A stretch of DNA of 64,000 nucleotides from Octopus vulgaris (lineage: Eukaryota). The position numbers and the translations under genes were made by a program. The DNA lies in the NCBI GenBank assembly GCA_951406725.2, contig OX597838.1, forward strand, positions 23,188,001 to 23,252,000, in the 5' to 3' direction. Positions 1,242-46,083 of the stretch are shown in pieces (the stretch's first letter is position 1; the number at the start of each line of letters is the position of its first letter). Below the pieces are notes generated by a model. It saw only the letters and a list, made by a program, of their open reading frames with translations, was not told the DNA's origin and ran no database searches.

Positions 1242-1376
1242 ATGTCTACAAGCAAAACGACAACAACGATATCAAGAAACTACACCAGCAGTGATATCGA
1301 GAAGGACTACCCTCTACACTGGCTCGTCTGGACCAATAACTACCAGGAGCTAGAAAAGGAGCTAAGTAAAAGTACG
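1242..1376 (+). CDS. ANKRD13: First coding exon (45 aa) of an ankyrin repeat domain-containing protein 13 family gene; ends at a phase-0 GT donor
   Basis: MSTSKTTTTISRNYTSSDIEKDYPLHWLVWTNNYQELEKELSKST matches the ANKRD13 N-terminal motif (Y/F)PLHxLVWxNxxxELExxL. It is followed by ACG|GTGAGT at 1376/1377, and the ORF read-through past the donor is not ANKRD13-like. The paralog (A/B/D) cannot be assigned. Confidence 0.85.
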
Positions 1377-6264: not shown

Positions 6265-6354
6265 GTTTAAATTTATAGAAAAACAAAAGACAAAGACAAG
6301 TGTATGAACAACAAGCAGGTGTGTTAGTTTGACGCTCGGGGAAAACGAAAAGGT

Positions 6355-6390
6355 CTTTTACGTTTCGGGCCTACCATCTTCATCAGAAAG
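6355..6390 (-). ncRNA. Minimal hammerhead motif with canonical core and damaged stem II, in element 6262-6445
   Basis: Minus strand reads cttt CTGATGA a gatggtaggccc GAAAC GTA aaag. Confidence 0.65.
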
Positions 6391-7000: not shown

Positions 7001-7991
7001 GATCTGGACCCAAAGTCATCACCCGCGGGATATGTAATGTAACTTATCACACACACTCACACGTGTATATTTGCATACCCTACCATCCATTAGTGTAAAT
7101 GATTTTTGTTTTTTTTTGTGAAGTGTTATGTGAGTTATATTGTGGAAATTTTATAACCAGAAATATGTCGATCATGGTTGATTAACAGGGCTGAGTAATT
7201 GAAAATGTGGCTTTGCTGTTGAACAACATAAAGTACCAGTCGAATACTAGAATCAGTTTTAAATATTTCTTAAAACCGGAATAGGCAAGATTTTTTGGGG
7301 AGTGAACTACATAAAACACAGCTCAACATCTGGTTGGTCGAGATGTGCCATTCAGAGAATCTCGTGGGCTGCAGTTTGCCTACAACTGCTCTTAAGCACT
7401 TGTCTGCCAGTCGAATTATCATAGAAGACTTTGTTCTGTGTCATCCTCTCAAATTTGTTTTTGACCTTGTGCCTATAACAAGTGGCAGATGGCACTATTG
7501 TGCAAGCAGTGAATGAAGTACCTGGGGTAGAATTTCATTCTCTGTGTTTCACTCCAATACACATGACTTTTGTGTTCCTGTGATAATAAATACCATAATC
7601 CTCATTTATATATATATATATATATGACTGAGAGAACCATTGAAGTTTTGGAGAAAATGCTTTTGTTTTTCCATTCTTGGTTTAAATCCCTCCAAGATTA
7701 ACTTTTGTCTTTCATCCCCTTGAACTTGACAAAATAAAGTACCAGTCATAGACTGGGGCTGTTTCCTTCCACTGATATCAACCCCTAAAAATTGTTTTGT
7801 GCCTTAAACCTTTCTCTATCCAAAGCATTTTGATAAGTTTGTCCTAGATAGCCATGCTTGTTTTCACACATTTAATTAGCATTTGTTTCCTACATTCTGA
7901 ATAACTGCAAGCTTTCCTTTCATAAGAACCAAGGAAATATGTTCTGTGTATCAACGGTTAATCCAGAATGAATTACAGATATTTATAGGTA

Positions 7992-8194
7992 GGGCAAAGG
8001 TGGCGAGCTGGGCAAAATGCTTAGTGGCATTTCGTCTGTCTGTATGTTCTGAGTTCAAATTCCACCGAGGTCGATTTTGCCTTTCATCTTTTCTGAGGTT
8101 GATAAAATAACTACCAGTTGAGCACCGGGGGTCGACGTAATCGACTTTGCCCCTCCCCTCAAAATTGTTAGCCCTGTGCCAAAATTTGATGCCA
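7992..8194 (+). mobile_element. tRNA-derived SINE, family B, with 13-bp TSD
   Basis: GGTGGCGAGCTGG...GAGTTCAAATTCC head; ATATTTATAGGTA repeated at 7979-7991 and 8195-8207. Confidence 0.85.
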
Positions 8195-8214
8195 ATATTT
8201 ATAGGTAAGTAAGG

Positions 8215-9760
8215 CGGTGCATCATCATCCATTCGAACACATTTCTCTCCTGTGACATCACAATTTTCTCTCACACACTGTCTTGCAATCCGAAATACCT
8301 CAGTTCTTTGGTCCTCACGTCTCTGGACATTGGCAAACTTCTTCTTTTCTGCTTCACTCTTGGCTATGTATACCTGCTGCACAGCCTCCCTTCTGGCTAC
8401 CTGGTACCGTTCCCTGCTACCACCATCCTTCCAGGCTTTCCAGGCCTATTTCTTTGCCCTAACGGCTTTGTCTACTGTTCTATTCCACCACCATGTAACT
8501 CTGGGTCTGTAAGGGACTTCGTACCATCCACAGACCTACCTTCTATGTCCGACATCTGTAACTCCTCCTCCCTCTCATCAGATTTCTTGATGAGGATGTC
8601 CCTAAATCTCTGACCGTGTGAAGGGTTCTTTAGCTTCCAAATCCTTCTTTTCTGGATTGGTTTGCTTCTAGGTATCCTTCTGGCCTCGAGCCTAAAGTCA
8701 ATAATGACTAACCAATGCTGGGGGGTACATTCTTCACCTGGGAGGGTCTTTGTATTTAAGAGCAACCCTGCATCCTGCTGTCTGGTGAGGATGAAATCAA
8801 TCTGGCTAGCAGAGTCCCCTGATTGATAGGTTATAAGGTGGCTGTCTGGCTTCCTGAAGTTAGCGTTGCAGATTAAAAGGTTACATGCATCACAGAATTC
8901 CAGTAGCCTAGTCCCCTCATCGTTTTGGGTGCCAATACCATGGCCACTGTGTACCCCAGTGAAGATACCAGATTCCCCCCCCAACATGCCCATTAAAGTC
9001 TCCAGCTACAAAGATGAGGTCATTTCCACTCGTCTTTGAGGTAGACTGCAGAAGGGTATCGTAAAAGTGGTCCTTCTGATCATTTGGTAGCCCCGCATGT
9101 GGGGCGTAGGTGGAGATAATTGTAGCTGTGCTGTTCTGTAGGACTAGCCTGAGCTTAAGCAACCTATCGCATACCCTGACAACCTCTATGACCTTATCCA
9201 CCCATTTCTCCGCAAGGAGTATGCCAACACCCCCTACACCATCCATGTTACCTTGCCAGAAGACTTTATACCTATGTGCCTTGCCTGTGAGGACCCTAGC
9301 TGAAGCTCCTCTCCATCTTACCTTTTGTATGCAGCATACATCAACCTGTCTCCTTTCACGCATCTCTACAATCTCACTATACCTACCTTTCAGTGTGCCA
9401 ACATTGACAGTGCCAACTCTGAAAACTGGGGAGGTAATATGGGGTGAGGTTTGGGGAGGAGGGATGTTATTCAGCGCCTGAAAAGGAGAGGGTTGTTGTG
9501 TTCATTTTTTAGGCATGCTTCGTTGATCTCTCTTCCGACCTGACAACATTCAAGTGTTTAAGCATGTTAAATTGCCGCTCCTACTGGATGTAGGAGCCGG
9601 TGTTAGCAGCGTTGTAAGCATAAGCGTTAAGGTTATTGAATGAAGTAGATTTTAGCGGTGTCGCAGAAATATGGATATTCCAGCTGAAAGCTGGTTGCAT
9701 TTGTCCAAGTATAGGGGGGATTGTAGGTATGTGGAGGGTTCCACCAGCGAGGAGAGGTTC
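8215..9760 (-). mobile_element. RTE-clade LINE 5' part: probable 5'UTR plus frameshifted APE endonuclease domain; RT absent
   Basis: VGTVNVGTLKGR, DVCCIQKVRW, GVGILL, ISTYAP, VAGDFNGHVG, SQIDFILTR motifs across ORFs 8917-9363, 8472-8993 and 7951-8382. Confidence 0.9.
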
Positions 9761-35218: not shown

Positions 35219-37468
35219 AAAAGCCACAAATGTTTTGTGGAGAGGCACGTTGATTTGAACTCAGAACATAAAATGAGCAAAATGCAACAAAGCATTTTAC
35301 CAGGCGTGCTAACGATTCTGCCAACTTGCCACCTTTAATGATAAATAAAGTAATTAAATAACGGTTTCTCTCAGACCTAAAGCCACAAATGTTTTGTGGA
35401 GAGGCATGTTGATTTGAACTCAGAACATAAAATGAACAAAATGCAACAAAGCATTTTACCAGGCGTGCTAACGATTCTGCCAACTTGCCACCTTTAATGA
35501 TAAATAAAGTAATTAAATAACGGTTTCTCTCAGACCTAAAGCCACAAATGTTTTGTGGAGAGGCATGTTGATTTGAACTCAGAACATAAAATGAACAAAA
35601 TGCAACAAAGCATTTTACCAGGCGTGCTAACGATTCTGCCAACTTGCCACCTTTAATGATAAATAAAGTAATTAAATAACGGTTTCTCTCAGACCTAAAG
35701 CCACAAATGTTTTGTGGAGAGGCATGTTGATTTGAACTCAGAACATAAAATGAACAAAATGCAACAAAGCATTTTACCAGGCGTGCTAACGATTCTGCCA
35801 ACTTGCCACCTTTAATGATAAATAAAGTAATTAAATAACGGTTTCTCTCAGACCTAAAGCCACAAATGTTTTGTGGAGAGGCATGTTGATTTGAACTCAG
35901 AACATAAAATGAACAAAATGCAACAAAGCATTTTACCAGGCGTGCTAACGATTCTGCCAACTTGCCGCCTTTAATGATAAATAAAGTAATTAAATAACGG
36001 TTTCTCTCAGACCTAAAGCCACAAATGTTTTGTGGAGAGGCACGTTGATTTGAACTCAGAACATAAAATGAGCAAAATGCGACAAAGCATTTTACCAGGC
36101 GTGCTAACGATTCTGCCAACTTGCCGCCTTTAATGATAAATAAAGTAATTAAATAACGGTTTCTCTCAGACCTAAAGCCACAAATGTTTTGTGGAGAGGC
36201 ATGTTGATTTGAACTCAGAACATAAAATGAACAAAATGCAACAAAGCATTTTACCAGGCGTGCTAACGATTCTGCCAACTTGCCACCTTTAATGATAAAT
36301 AAAGTAATTAAATAACGGTTTCTCTCAGACCTAAAGCCACAAATGTTTTGTGGAGAGGCACGTTGATTTGAACTCAACATAAAATGAACAAAATGCAACA
36401 AAGCATTTTACCAGGCGTGCTAACGATTCTGCCAACTTGCCACCTTTAATGATAAATAAAGTAATTAAATAACGGTTTCTCTCAGACCTAAAGCCACAAA
36501 TGTTTTGTGGAGAGGCACGTTGATTTGAACTCAGAACATAAAATGAACAAAATGCAACAAAGCATTTTACCAGGCGTGCTAACGATTCTGCCAACTTGCC
36601 ACCTTTAATGATAAATAAAGTAATTAAATAACGGTTTCTCTCAGACCTAAAGCCACAAATGTTTTGTGGAGAGGCACGTTGATTTGAACTCAGAACATAA
36701 AATGAACAAAATGCAACAAAGCATTTTACCAGGCGTGCTAACGATTCTGCCAACTTGCCACCTTTAATGATAAATAAAGTAATTAAATAACGGTTTCTCT
36801 CAGACCTAAAGCCACAAATGTTTTGTGGAGAGGCACGTTGATTTGAACTCAGAACATAAAATGAACAAAATGCAACAAAGCATTTTACCAGGCGTGCTAA
36901 CGATTCTGCCAACTTGCCACCTTTAATGATAAATAAAGTAATTAAATAACGGTTTCTCTCAGACCTAAAGCCACAAATGTTTTGTGGAGAGGCACGTTGA
37001 TTTGAACTCAGAACATAAAATGAACAAAATGCAACAAAGCATTTTACCAGGCGTGCTAACGATTCTGCCAACTTGCCACCTTTAATGATAAATAAAGTAA
37101 TTAAATAACGGTTTCTCTCAGACCTAAAGCCACAAATGTTTTGTGGAGAGGCACGTTGATTTGAACTCAGAACATAAAATGAACAAAATGCAACAAAGCA
37201 TTTTACCAGGCGTGCTAACGATTCTGCCAACTTGCCACCTTTAATGATAAATAAAGTAATTAAATAACGGTTTCTCTCAGACCTAAAGCCACAAATGTTT
37301 TGTGGAGAGGCACGTTGATTTGAACTCAGAACATAAAATGAACAAAATGCGACAAAGCATTTTACCAGGCGTGCTAACGATTCTGCCAACTTGCCGCCTT
37401 TAATGATAAATAAAGTAATTAAATAATGGTTTCTCTCAGACCTAAAGCCACAAATGTTTGGTGGAGAG
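35219..37468 (-). repeat. Tandem satellite of about 14 x 159 bp, each unit containing a family B SINE head
   Basis: AAGCCACAAA at 35221 and 35380 gives period 159; units nearly identical; 2-nt deletion in the unit near 36375. Confidence 0.95.
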
Positions 37469-38251
37469 AGGCACAATCACCTGTGTCACACCCCACTCAC
37501 ACCGCCACACTCGTTTCTCTGCTATTTATTTTATCGATCATTTATATTTTATAAGCCATTGATTCTTCCGCCAGCATGTTATCAACCTGGTTGGCTTTGT
37601 TGTCTGTCTCCTGTTTGAAACATGTCCGATAGTCTGCCTGCTTACCTGTATGACTGTCTGTCTGTCTGTCCGTCCGGGCCACCTGCCTGTATGTCTGTCT
37701 GTTCATCTGTTATGATTGTCCTCTCTCTCTCCCTCCCTCCTCCTCCCTCTCTCTCTCCCTCCCTCCTCCTCCCTCTCTCTCTCCCTCCCTCCTCCTCCCT
37801 CTCTCCCCCCCCTTACCACCTCTGTACACAGTCTTTCAATAGTGTCCTGTCTCCTTGGTAATATTGTTTCTTTGACTCTCTCTCTCTCTATCTCCTTCCT
37901 CGTGGCCACCACCCTCAGAATTTTTTTTTTTTTATCTATCGATTTATCTATACATTTCATTTCATTCAACCATCAGGCACTTATGATTACAACTATTTAT
38001 TATTATTATCATCATTATTATTTCTAGGTTTTTGTAATATTTTCCCCAAAGCCTATTGGTCACAGCTGACTTCACTTCCATACTTTGCTGTCTTACTACT
38101 ACTACTACTACTACTACTACTACAATAATTATTATTACTGCTGTGACCACCATAACACATTTTTGTTACTCCTGGTTTCTTCAGTTTTATACTGGTTAGA
38201 AACAAATAACTCTTGAATGTGAAATATATATATACATATATATGTGTGTGC

Positions 38252-38294
<43 letters not shown>

Positions 38295-38467
38295 GTGTAT
38301 CAATTTATATATATATATAAAGTGTTGTATCAATTTATATATATATATATATATAAAATATTAATTAGAGACAAAACCACTATTATGCAAATCAAACAAA
38401 GAAAGACTTAATCCAATACATAAAATTTTTTATATAAATTAAATATAATTAAGATTAATTAAGATAT

Positions 38468-38513
38468 CCACTACGATCGTTTCTTGTCACTTCATTGGAC
38501 ATTCATCAGGTGG
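38468..38513 (-). ncRNA. Type I minimal hammerhead ribozyme with canonical core, in a (TA)n-flanked element (about 38355-38575)
   Basis: Minus strand reads ccac CTGATGA a tgtc caatgaagt gaca a GAAA C gatc G TA gtgg: stem I ccac/gtgg, stem II tgtc/gaca, palindromic stem III ACGATCGT. Confidence 0.85.
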
Positions 38514-38719
38514 TTTTAAGACCTTCTATGCAATTTTGATTTTCCCTGTAAATTTGGATTTATTCCCTAATATTTATTATTATATATATATGTATATATA
38601 TATATATAAAGTGTGTATCTCTCTCTATATATAAAGTATGTGCGTGTACATATATATATATTACAGAGATGTACTTGCATAGCTAGTGACCTGATCTGAG
38701 ATCGTATGCTGGAACGAAA

Positions 38720-39007
38720 ACAATTGCAGCGTGGAAGGTGTTTATAAGCCATTTACGAAACACACAAAATCTGTTAGATTCACTTCAACATTTAAATTTA
38801 ATTTGTCAAAATATTTTCGTCACTTTGAGTCCGCGACCTGTTCGCTGACAAAATTCCAAGATGCAGCACGGAATTTTATCAGTGAACAGGTCGCGATCTC
38901 AAAGCGACGAAAATATTTTGACAAATTAAATTTAAATGTTGAAGTGAATCTAATGTTTTTCGTGTGTTTCGTAAATGGCTTATAAACACCTTCCATGCTG
39001 CAATTGT
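38720..39007. repeat. Near-perfect fold-back of about 290 bp
   Basis: ACAATTGCAGCGTGGAAGGTGTTTATAAGCC...AAATTCC / GGAATTTT...GGCTTATAAACACCTTCCATGCTGCAATTGT; loop about 38858-38869. Confidence 0.95.
38872..38927 (+). ncRNA. Variant hammerhead motif with G3-C8 core; mirror copy at 38800-38855 (-)
   Basis: tttatca GTGAACA g gtcgc gatctcaaa gcgac GAAA atat TT tgacaaa. Confidence 0.55.
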
Positions 39008-39110
39008 TATATATATATAAAAGGAAAGTTTACGAAAATAAACAAAAGACGAAAGCAGGTGGAGTACAAACAAACAAATGTATTAGTATAGCGCTCAGGA
39101 ATAGAAAAAG

Positions 39111-39145
39111 TCTTATGTTTCAAGCCTACGCTCTTCGACAGAAAG
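39111..39145 (-). ncRNA. HHR motif, CTGTCGA-core family (element about 39020-39210)
   Basis: Minus strand reads cttt CTGTCGA a gagc gtag gctt GAAAC ATA aga. Confidence 0.5.
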
Positions 39146-39443
39146 ATACACGGAAAAAAACAAGGAGAGAAAAAAAATGCATGTAGGAGCTAACGATCTA
39201 TCATGGTGTCCCTGTTTAAATATATATATATATATAGCAAGGGTTAGACAAATATATGTTGAGGCAGTGTTTTAAACTCCTAGTCCCCCCCCCGTCACAT
39301 TCGCTTGGTCTCTTATTCCACACATCTTCATAAGCGCAGAGACCGTATAATTTGTGAATTAGGGAAATGACATCACCACCACTTGTAGTTCAATATTTTT
39401 GAGGGAGCAGAAATATAAACGAGCACTAAAACACATTCTTATA

Positions 39444-39660
39444 TGAGCAGGTGCTGAAAAGTTCCTGGCTTTAAGGGTCTCACAAAAGGCTTGGTTGGAG
39501 GCCCAACCTTCTATGTTCTTTTACAAGGTTTAGAAAAACTGAAAGACTTCTGCAATAAGTGTGCGAATCTGAGAAGGGAATATGGTCGGTAAAATCATAA
39601 TTAACTGATGCTCCTATATTTTCTTTTATCCAAAGCCATGAACTTTTCAGTATCCCCTCG
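39444..39660. mobile_element. mariner-type MITE
   Basis: TA|TGAGCAGGTGCTGAAAAGTTCCTGGCTTT ... AAAGCCATGAACTTTTCAGTATCCCCTCG TIRs. Confidence 0.75.
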
Positions 39661-40084
39661 TGTGTGTGTATATGTGTGTATGTGTGTGTGTGTGTGTTTG
39701 TATATATATCCCAACATGCATATGTCCATGATGCAAACGATTCTACCAGCTTAATATAGCAATGACAGTTTTAATTTCAAATTTTGGCACAAGGCCAGCA
39801 ATTTTTTTTGGGTGGGGGGGATAAGTTGATTAGATTGACCCCAGTGCTCAGCTGGTACTGATTTTATTGACCCCAAAAAGACGGAGGTCAGAGTTGACCT
39901 TGGTGGAATTTGAACTCAGAACGTAAAGATGAGCGAAATGCTGCTAAGCATTTTGCCCATCATACGATCAATTCTGCCAGCTCTCCACTTTACTGATTAA
40001 TAGAACATCACTTTCAAGTTTTGACCCAAGGCCAGCAATTTCTGGTGGGGTTGGATAGGTTGACTAGTTCGACCCCAGTGCTGT

Positions 40085-40243
40085 AGGCATGGGAGTGGCT
40101 GTGTGGTAAGTAGTTTGCTCAGCAACCACATGGTTCCGGGTTCAGTCCCACTGCGTGGCACCTTGGGCAAGTGTCTTCTACTATAGCCTCAGGCCGACCA
40201 AAGCCTTGTGAGTGGATTTGGTAGACGGAAGAAGCCCGTCGTA

Positions 40244-40292
<49 letters not shown>

Positions 40293-40530
40293 GTGTGTGT
40301 GTGTGTGTGTGCGTGTATGTTTGTGTGTCTTTGTGTTTGTCCCCCTAGCATTGCTTGACAACCGATGCTGGTGTGTTTATGTCCTCGTTACTTAGCGGTT
40401 CGGCAAAAGAGACCGATAGAATAAGTACTGGGCTTACAAAGAATAAGTCCCAGGGTCGAGTTGCTCGACTAGAGGCGGTGCTCCAGCATGGTCGCAGTCA
40501 ACTGACTGAAACAAGTAAAAGAGTAAAGAG
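40085..40530 (+). mobile_element. SINE family A inserted in a family B SINE
   Basis: Full head, body and tail; family B sequence resumes at 40535-40660. Confidence 0.85.
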
Positions 40531-41344
40531 AGAGGCCGGTACTTATTTTATCGACTCTGGAAGAACGAAAGGGAAATTCGGACCTCAGGTGGAATTTGAA
40601 CCCAGAACATAAAAGACCGGTGAAACGATGCTGCGTGCTAACGATTCTGCCAGTGTGCCACCTGATAACAATAGACTTATGAACAAGTACATGAAAGAGC
40701 AACAACTGCATAACAAAATAACAAAACAATATAATAAAAGAAGCAACAATAAATAATAAATAGCAATAATAGGTTTTTTTTCAGTCAATTTTGTCAGTTA
40801 TCCAATCAATTTTTCATATTCTGTTTTAGTTGGGGTTTTTTTTATTTTTTATTTTTTGTCATTTTTATTTATTTTATTTATTCTCCATTGCAATCTATCA
40901 TACAACCCAATCATATAATTTCAATAATACAGACCAATCATACAGTCTAATCTACTGTCCAATCAAATTGCTTGACTTTTGATTTCCTGTTTTCTTTATA
41001 TTTGATTAGGTATTTTTTGTTGTTGTTTTCTCTTCTTTTTTTTTGTCCCGAATTATATGTTCACCACTCTTACACACGTGTGTATGTATATGTATGATAG
41101 ACACAGATATATAATACAATAGTGTGTGTGTGTGTGCCTTTTATCTGTTAGTTGTTTCAGTTGTTGGACTATGGTCCCATGGGGGCACTGCTTTGGAGAA
41201 TTTTAGTCAGTCAAATTGAACCAAGTACTTATTTTTTTTTAAGCCTGGTGTTCATTTTATTGGTTTCTTTTGATGAACAGAGCTAGAAGGATGTAAACAC
41301 ACCAACACCAGATGTCAAGTGCTGGTAGTAGTAGGACAAACACA

Positions 41345-41385
<41 letters not shown>

Positions 41386-41436
41386 ACCGACCAGGCTATC
41401 AGATGTTGCTACATATCGCTAGTCACAATGCGCTTG

Positions 41437-41802
41437 AAACAAGAGCACTCAGAGAGCACAAAACTCTGCCAAGGCAACACCAATGTCCTCTCAATGATTA
41501 GCCAGAGATGATTTTTAAAATGAGAATATCTGAAATAAACTCGACTCCTCCGACAAACAAGAATACTAAAAATGAACCCGACCACTCTCAAAAATTAAGT
41601 AAGAAAAACAGGAAAAATAATCCAGAATCCTTGTCTGGTATTGGATCGATCCCAAAATTTAATTAGTTCGTGCCAGTCATGAGGCCAAACATCCCTGAAA
41701 GTTTCATCCGAATCCATACTGCAGTTCTTGAGATATCTTGTCCACGAACAAACAAACATGACTGAAAACAATGCCTCTACCTTTGCTAAGACAGAGGTAA
41801 TA
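41437..41802. mobile_element. Helentron/Helitron2-type non-autonomous element
   Basis: AACAAGAGCACTCAGAGAG...CTC(C/T)GCCAAGG sub-terminal motif and a terminal ACCTCCGCCTT-CGCT-AAGGCGGAGGT hairpin (intact in the 22166-22225 fragment); second copy at 55232-55612. Confidence 0.6.
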
Positions 41803-42188
41803 AAATCGAATAACAATGATAGTTGTTTCATTCTTGAAATTAAAATGCAAAAAAAAAAAAAAAAAATTCTCTTCAGTGTTTTGGACATAAGTCCTTCATT
41901 ACACAGGAAAGGAAAGCAAACAGCTAGAGAAAAATTGTAAAGAAACGACGGGGAAGACCGTTAAGGCAGAAACACTACATGTAGTTATAGCTTGGCATTA
42001 TCTTGGAGAATGGTTTCAAAGCATAAAAATTTTCCACCATGTTGGTGGAGAAAAAAAGCTTAACACTCACATTACTATATTTCAGTCGAAATTTGCTACC
42101 TTCATTTGAATTAATTTTGAAACTAATTTAGTAGAATTTTAGTAAAATAACTTTGTTATTAAGCTGTTTAAAAAAAATTTTTTTTTAA

Positions 42189-44755: not shown

Positions 44756-44869
44756 GTATATATATATCGTTATTATACAAGTGTTGTAAGTCCAAAAGGG
44801 TTTTTTTTTTTTTTTTGTCTTCAGAAAACGAAAAAATAGTTTCACCATTCCATTTTCTTTTTTTTACAA

Positions 44870-45183
44870 TAGCAACAGTTTCAGCTTAACAATAATACTT
44901 TGTTGGGTGCATAAAATCAGAACTCCATGCATGTTACTTTCAGTCAGAAGCATTTTTGCAAAACTGTTGTATGTGGGACTTACAACACTTTCATAAAATG
45001 TTAAACCATTATACTGCACTTTGACAAATTTTGATATCTTGGCATTTGAAGCAGCTGGAGATACGATAGTTTGACCGGAAGAACCAGCTATTGCAAGCAT
45101 AAACCTCAAATGCCTAGGAGGGTCCACCTTAGTAAAACAGAAATCAAAGGGGTCCACAGGCAAAAAATGGTTGAGAATCACTG
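44870..45183. mobile_element. hAT-like MITE fragment with one TIR
   Basis: Ends GGTTGAGAATCACTG (reverse complement CAGTGATTCTCAACC) with sub-terminal GGGTCCAC repeats, as in the 27972 element. Confidence 0.55.
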
Positions 45184-46083
45184 ATTTAGATTATTGTCAA
45201 ATGTAATCCCTATTTATCCACGTTGTTTTTGGCTTAATCGTGCATTATCTTATATCTTTGAGATTTTGATAATTTGATTATTTATTTCTACAATGACATT
45301 GTAGGGTAGGTGCGAGAGCTCAGATGTGGCTGGTGTTTAAATTGTTTGATAGTTGAATAAACTTTTGGCAAGACCGTGTAGCTGTTGCACTGTTGTTGTG
45401 TCACTAGACAATACAAGGCCATTATGCTGTTGTTATCTCACTGGAAAAGACAAGCTGCTACACTGTTCTGTCACTGGAGAAGGCAAGCCATTATACTCTT
45501 GTCAATCGTTCGACCCATGCCTGCATGGAAGATGGATGTCAAACAATGATGATTACATATATACATATATATATATAATATGTATATATACATATATGTG
45601 TATATATATATATATATATGGGTCTTCCCTTTGAACGTTGGGCCTCATGGAGGCAAAGTGGCTGGGTGCCTTTCGAGTTTTGGGCCTCACTGAAGTGAGG
45701 TGGCTGAGTCCCTTTTGAGCATTGGGCCTCATGGAGGCAAAGTGGCTGAGTTCCTTTTGAGTGTTGGGCCTCACAGAGACGATGACCAAGATCTTTGGCA
45801 CTATGTCGTGCTTGAGAAGACCCATCAAGCTGAGCAAAATTACAGTCGTGAAAGATACCGGTGTAACGCAAATGGCACCCATGCCAGTGGCACGTAAAAG
45901 CACCCGTTACACGCTTGGAGTGGGTGGCATTAGGAAAGGCATCAAGCTGTAGAAACCATGCCAAATCAGACTGGAACCTGGCACAGCCTTCCAGCATGCC
46001 AGCTCAATCAAACCATCCAACCCATGCCAGCAGGGACAACGGATGTTAAATGATGAAGATGATATACACACGCAAACAAACAC

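Follow-up and report, generated by a model that had tools for sequence, protein, structure and literature searches.

Penelope-like elements (PLEs) of the Hydra clade have been described as encoding RT followed by GIY-YIG, with KWK, DKT, CxCx5C, CxxC and CxH motifs and no CCHH motif (section 11 of PMC8557442), and hammerheads in these elements have already been published in the same paper (Craig et al. 2021). Its available text also describes PLEs as unusual in keeping introns. In PMC3846280, an antisense template was proposed for both intron retention and head-to-head copies, and an unspliced sense template was not excluded; in the available parts of these two papers, PLE intron retention, the template strand and the role of the hammerhead are stated as open. 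In a different PLE, RT was reported to start at two internal sites and to use mainly unprocessed RNA as its substrate, and the hammerhead to be assisted by protein (PMC11167929), the in vitro data being those of a Poseidon-clade element, not a Hydra one.

Here, we analyzed a hammerhead motif in a 64,000-nucleotide stretch of Octopus vulgaris DNA (the window). The original prediction overlooked both the identity of the motif, which ends a Hydra-clade Penelope-like element, and the spliced junction that it carries. We hold with good confidence that it is a Hydra-clade PLE terminal-repeat hammerhead in a short retrocopy, likely made from a spliced, uncut transcript and likely silent in place. As a ribozyme the motif is ordinary, one end among about a thousand in a known kind of element; the interest lies beyond the single motif, in what the family records of splicing, priming and occasional cutting.

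The octopus family resembles the Hydra clade (PMC8557442) in having RT then GIY-YIG, the same motifs without CCHH, (TA)n targets, an inverted 5'-truncated copy, and a hammerhead of canonical topology, often with a mismatch at the base of helix II. By our own count, 15 of the 26 Hydra rows in File S2 of that paper are mismatched there (14 U·U and 1 U·C); unlike these 26 rows, which contain no A·A, A·C or A·G at 10.1-11.1, the octopus family has all three. It also differs in a 3-kb AT-rich region with two splice donors between the ORF and the hammerhead, whereas the Hydra elements listed in PMC8557442 are mostly under 3 kb. The minimal hammerheads of metazoan PLEs (Cervera and De la Pena 2014, PMC4209133) are likewise of type I with a short helix I and a small palindromic helix III, and are found in solo and inverted copies, with an intron ending at helix I as in Penelope of Drosophila virilis. 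Their consensus, however, has G10.1-C11.1 with one extra base, whereas the octopus stem has 4 bp closed by A·A; and the octopus intron, of 1.1-1.5 kb, ends ~9 nt before helix I, the compared intron being 75 nt long. Penelope itself (Schostak et al. 2008, PMC2377424) shares the internal start site, the short first exon and a 5'-UTR intron in the terminal repeat, but it is described as keeping the intron on transposition, whereas 81% of the counted octopus arms lost it precisely. The PAc Poseidon element (Frangieh et al. 2024, PMC11167929) is alike in its two internal RT start sites defining the tail and in its unprocessed main template. It belongs to another clade, and in the available part of that paper none of the RNA reads ended at the cut site, whereas ~3% of the octopus genomic arms start there. 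Metazoan non-LTR retrozymes (bioRxiv 10.64898/2026.07.22.740005) are also short non-coding type I hammerhead repeats from PLE ends, but they form head-to-tail tandem arrays, whereas the window copy is a solo head-to-head stub; with no tandem array, a retrozyme identity was rejected.

The hammerhead motif and the insertion that carries it

The core boxes claimed in the original prediction, CUGAUGA, GAAA and GUA, were all found on the minus strand (Table 1). Read from 38513 to 38468, the layout is CCAC (helix I, 5' strand), CUGAUGA, A, UGUC (helix II, 5' strand), a 9-nt loop, GACA (helix II, 3' strand), A, GAAA, CGAUC, GUA and GUGG (helix I, 3' strand), which presents CUGANGA, GAAA and NUH in the order of a type I core with helix I open-ended. 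The cut site fell where it had been placed, between 38472 and 38471, and the palindromic, dimer-type character of helix III was borne out: ACGAUCGU (38480-38473) is short, as in PLE minimal (dimer-type) hammerheads, gives a computed 8-bp self-duplex of -10.0 kcal/mol, and covaries between subfamilies (CGAUCG or CAAUUG). The description "fully canonical" does not fit, however. Helix III has 2 bp as a monomer, and A lies opposite A at 10.1 (38502) and 11.1 (38484), at the base of helix II, in place of the conserved G-C pair. There was also no Rfam match for the motif: the whole window gave none at the gathering score, and the 34 matches at E<=10 in 36000-42000 included no hammerhead family. The miRNA matches from Rfam were rejected as microsatellites and a long inverted repeat. 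In the available part of PMC3088659, 10.1-11.1 is described as the most conserved hammerhead pair after A15.1-U16.1, and a natural U·U is called surprising; our literature search on this pair returned no cleavage rate for A·A.

Table 1. Positions of the motif, the insertion and the first coding exon of the host gene in the window
Feature	Position	Strand	Basis or remark
Type I hammerhead motif of PLE terminal repeat	38468..38513	-	Sequence layout; sole descriptor match in window
Core box CUGAUGA (C3-A9)	38503..38509	-	
Helix II with 9-nt loop	38484..38502	-	4-bp stem, 38501-38498 with 38488-38485
GAAA box and palindromic helix III ACGAUCGU	38473..38483	-	
Predicted scissile bond after GUA	38471..38472	-	Hammerhead geometry; family arms beginning there
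Hammerhead-bearing arm, ending at short 3' end and running into (TA)n	38357..38539	-	
17-nt remnant of 27-nt first exon	38523..38539	-	Joined to 38522, exact spliced junction
Inverted 5'-truncated second arm, tail only, long 3' end, without hammerhead	38540..38583	+	Head-to-head with first arm
(TA)n target with AAAGTGTGTATC unit	38263..38356	.	Repeated on other flank at 38581-38642 (85%)
First coding exon of ANKRD13-like host gene, then GTGAGT donor	1242..1376	+	Encodes N-terminus

A relaxed hammerhead descriptor, run over the whole window, matched at this motif only, and any match at all was obtained in 4 of 200 shuffled windows. Folded alone, the motif was no better than its shuffles (z -0.63). 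In the predicted ensemble of the window copy, helices I and II had P=0.002 and a rival helix dominated, because the 5' strand of helix II pairs with bases after the cut; since nearest-neighbour folding is without the core tertiary contacts, this value understates the active fold. The motif had been named the best candidate for a still-active ribozyme here. It is the sole descriptor match in the window, but the activity of this copy is doubtful, because the promoter region is absent, the host transcript is opposed and there is no second hammerhead in cis, and because its subfamily folds worst among those compared and its descent is apparently from uncut RNA.

The window copy is a 230-bp head-to-head stub in (TA)n, promoterless and likely derived from spliced, uncut RNA, and the flanking (TA)n/AAAGTGTGTATC repeats likely represent a target duplication. 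It has a single hammerhead motif with no tandem unit. Over 38513-38433 it differed from all of the 32 compared subfamily arms only at 38495, its one private change in loop II. The copy is young and likely silent where it sits, activity in place being unlikely for a promoterless spliced stub; the minus strand at this locus could still be transcribed by antisense read-through. In contigs of four presumed-RNA runs, coverage of the tail was far higher than that of the motif and no joints were found; such contigs are blind to ends and strand, and were set aside.

The parent element and its subfamilies

A parent copy, L091 (G000:C10), carries a direct pair of motifs, 2,979 bp apart and flanking coding sequence for RT and GIY-YIG, as well as a motif in inverted orientation, and thus shows the terminal-repeat location of PLE minimal hammerheads. 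Its 659-aa frame has LYRDD at 187 and YIG at 551, the order being RT and then a C-terminal GIY-YIG. The RWK/DKT motifs are represented by KWK in an upstream frame of L091 and by IVQSDKTRN in a second parent copy, L144. L091 also has the CxCx5C linker, with CxxC and CxH near the end, and it is without CX2-5CxxC and the two-cysteine CCHH core. Together with insertion into (TA)n, as in Hydra-clade PLEs, these motifs point to a new Hydra-clade PLE family, and the aligned Hydra blocks in the supplement of PMC8557442 resemble the parent ORF by eye. Pfam searches of the parent ORFs gave no significant family, and the parent protein had 197 relatives at E<=1e-30. The ORFs examined in L091 and L144 are both interrupted, that of L091 near its start, and the active master is not among them. 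Membership in Naiad was rejected since EN is C-terminal, and identity with Hydra-1_Obim was rejected since protein and motif differ. Five motif strings of the octopus family are absent from the available supplement of PMC8557442, and our literature search on octopus hammerheads found none describing this PLE family.

Three further features of the parent copies were observed. In L091:1467-4765, the upstream hammerhead is preceded by a 3'-UTR exon (with the junction of the donor called donor 1 below), not by the first exon; the copy thus exceeds one unit, as a circular template or a template switch could explain. On the minus strand of L091:2400-2700, an asparagine-rich (AAT)n stretch lies between RT and EN, and such stretches have been described for rotifer Penelope ORFs (PMC3846280). 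L142:5619-7220 (plus strand) holds a second, diverged PLE ORF remnant (GGLYRDD) next to a copy that has kept the intron.

In the microsatellite-rich 2.8-Gb source genome, a search at the DNA level yielded 51 motif matches from 40 of the 637 candidates scored, many of the matches lying in divergent pairs. Positions 10.1 and 11.1 were left free in the pattern and were both A in 51 of 51 matches, so that the mismatch is the norm of the subfamily. With a downstream 19-mer as the anchor, at least 938 family arms were counted in the genome. In an unbiased sample (the first 100 listed places, which gave 74 regions and 44 motif-bearing arms), the 10.1-11.1 pair was A·U in 18 arms, A·A in 17, A·C in 7 and A·G in 2, and the loop III palindrome was CAATTG in 22 and CGATCG in 20. 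Among 11 chosen variants, loop II varied while helices I and II and the core never did, and covariation in the two helices cannot be judged from invariant strands. The palindrome showed a G-C/A-U double change (5 versus 6 of the 11 variants), which is probably one or few inherited events. A distal extension of helix I was paired in 80% of cells over the 11 variants, and a loop 1-loop 2 contact motif was not identified.

Among subfamilies with 9-nt loops, the main A·U and A·C ones were predicted to form helices I and II at P 0.68-0.99; the A·A subfamilies were at P<=0.05, and the long-loop A·U variant likewise. Because the A·A subfamilies fold poorly, the window copy is a poor candidate within its family. 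Subfamilies that differ only at 11.1 (U, A, C, G) provide a natural series on the weight of the 10.1-11.1 pair. Another subfamily (L161, L163, L167, L172) has a 27-nt loop II, CUGAAGA in the core, A·U as the closing pair and another first exon.

Splicing, priming and possible cutting in the family

The shared module was preceded by three different sequences. In four intron-containing copies (L141, L142, L144, L145), a short exon is followed by a GTACGT donor (donor 2), 1116-1496 nt, and TTTTAG (TTATAG in L145) before helix I. In the window copy, the first exon is joined at 38523/38522 exactly to the acceptor position of these copies. The other donor, GTAAGT (donor 1), lies 2,875 nt upstream in L144, is also present in L145, and is joined to the same acceptor in L091. 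Exact-pattern counts gave 268 spliced versus 63 intron-retaining arms, and the 44 arms of the unbiased sample comprised 25 spliced at donor 2, 1 at donor 1, 12 unspliced and 6 other. We think it very improbable that the junctions are DNA-level deletions with microhomology and not splicing. AG is indeed common to both sides of the donor-2 junction, but a single acceptor is joined exactly to two different donors (CTG/GTAAGT in L144 and L145; AAG/GTACGT in four loci), and the junction recurs in subfamilies whose second exon begins with AT, not GT. At L195 (G000:C1:189194661-189195785), unrelated sequence that ends in TTAG is joined at the acceptor position of both arms, a possible capture of other sequence at the splice site.

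For 43 of 46 spliced arms, the start lay no more than 27 nt from the junction, and for 11 it lay at exactly 27 nt; the window copy begins at 17. This fixed point 27 nt upstream suggests a transcription start, both promoter and start site being read from the copy ends alone. Since the head-to-head copies have sense-strand spliced junctions, they argue for a sense template. A literature search on intron-less PLE copies found none, Arkhipova 2003 and Evgen'ev and Arkhipova 2005 lying outside that search.

The 3' stops of 102 arms were short in 45, long in 44 and other in 13, and a long and a short end were paired in 22 of 28 two-armed insertions, as they are in the window copy. The two 3' ends and their pairing match the two RT start sites and one-sided tail described in PMC11167929.

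For the cut-site count, the anchor begins 4 nt after the cut, and the consensus C at -8 was present in 466 arms and not in 65. Nearly all of the arms with this C that were among the 100 listed run through the cut site. After full-length mutants and arms starting at +4 or later were dropped from the 65, 36 remained by eye. Apparent starts at -2 to 0 numbered 17 of 36 by eye and 16 of 35 in a scripted recount that left out four arms from the other sample, a modest excess over the uniform null of 26.8% (p = 0.007-0.013). Starts exactly at the cut site were 6 of 35 versus the 5-6% expected (p = 0.01-0.02), and these arms are separate insertions because their flanks differ. A second cluster of starts lies at -7/-6, inside the palindrome. 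Most of the -1 arms share AG with the inverted arm, as in microhomology, and without the five -1 arms the count is 11 of 30 (p = 0.16) and the excess is lost. About 3% of the arms may come from cut RNA; most templates, that of the window copy among them, appear to have been read through the cut site.

We propose that a promoter in the terminal repeat would make a short RNA of first exon, intron, hammerhead and tail, which would be spliced and then bound by the element's protein. Copying of the bound RNA into nicked (TA)n would begin at two internal points, one for each strand of the target, and this two-start copying would yield two head-to-head arms, one ending long and the other short. Only rare cutting by the hammerhead is predicted, as a palindrome dimer or helped by the element's protein, and with cutting so rare most templates would be copied through the site. 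With its promoter region gone and host pre-mRNA reading the other strand, the window copy would not be cut.

Two other readings of the hammerhead were weighed against this proposal. It seems quite improbable to us that the window copy works as a ribozyme where it sits, dimerizing in trans to cleave antisense RNA from the host intron, even though its core boxes are intact, its sole private change is confined to loop II and its palindrome could hold an 8-bp duplex. Ten of the 17 arms starting at -2 to 0 have the ATATCT tail, which goes with A·A subfamilies, and L047 and L092, of exactly the same subfamily as the window copy, start at the cut; however, the A·A pair and the dominance of the rival helix in the predicted fold, the lack of a promoter region and of a partner motif in cis, and the available data of PMC4209133, in which a metazoan PLE motif showed no monomer and low multimer activity, all speak against activity at this locus. 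It is rather unlikely that the hammerhead of the whole family is a dead relic, with 11.1 drifting freely and the near-site 5' ends reflecting microhomology and fold-back, not cutting. The varying identity of 11.1 between subfamilies (U, A, C or G in 18, 17, 7 and 2 of 44 arms), the start cluster inside the palindrome and the loss of the excess without the -1 arms speak for a relic. Yet none of the 11 variants differs in helix I, helix II or the core, whereas their loop II is variable, both halves of the palindrome change, exact cut-site starts exceed expectation, and the Hydra rows of PMC8557442 are often mismatched at the same pair.

Our preferred reading, a retrocopy of mostly spliced and uncut RNA, may be extended, tentatively and with somewhat less than even confidence, to the family as a whole. 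Most insertions would copy sense, spliced RNA from its own start, against antisense templating of head-to-head copies and intron retention; the small cut-start class would mean that A·A hammerheads cut in vivo; and the template of L091 would have been an RNA circle, closed by hammerhead ligation or back-splicing. If so, the complete life cycle of PLE RNA would be recorded in the genome by this family. A single genome here offers counts of copies with and without the intron, of both donors, of a fixed start, of two kinds of 3' end and of starts at the cut site, and the pasting back of mostly spliced, uncut RNA bears on how PLEs are thought to copy themselves.

The host gene and other sequences of its first intron

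The motif had been called antisense to the host gene, and the ANKRD13-like gene is real and on the plus strand. Pfam matches to Ank, ANKRD13_C and UIM lie on that strand just beyond the window end. Exon 1242-1376 was spotted by eye after these flanking matches (150 of 535 frames, with window frames left out); Pfam on 150 of the 264 non-simple window frames had given no host exon. The protein P0152 (98% identical over this exon; Pfam PF11904) joins it directly to the next one, which begins 1088 bases past the window end, and the motif is therefore antisense within a 63,711-nt first intron. Since the host pre-mRNA reads the opposite strand, the hammerhead would not cut it. A minus-strand exon candidate at 44867-45190 was dropped for want of a homologue. 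Neighbouring minus-strand genes are indicated by an ankyrin-repeat exon ~100 kb upstream (L260:2264-2740) and a UCH (ubiquitin hydrolase) exon ~78 kb downstream (L277:7629-8219).

Other repeats were observed in the same window. At 38719-39008, two 139-nt arms are 92% complementary, 12 nt apart and end in (TA)n; this repeat, distinct from the adjoining hammerhead stub and with partial matches in L005, L025 and L029, is possibly another head-to-head PLE-type insertion. On the minus strand, 6345-6390 holds a degenerate hammerhead of the minimal type, CUGAUGA...GAAACGUA, which has 4 bp in helix I but a badly paired helix II and fails the descriptor, and 7954-9501 holds a broken LINE-type endonuclease fragment (Pfam Exo_endo_phos, E 6.6e-5). 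A tandem array at 35220-37468, in which Pfam matches were repeat artefacts, has a 159-bp unit in 14.2 copies with 99% matches and is a very young array in the same intron.
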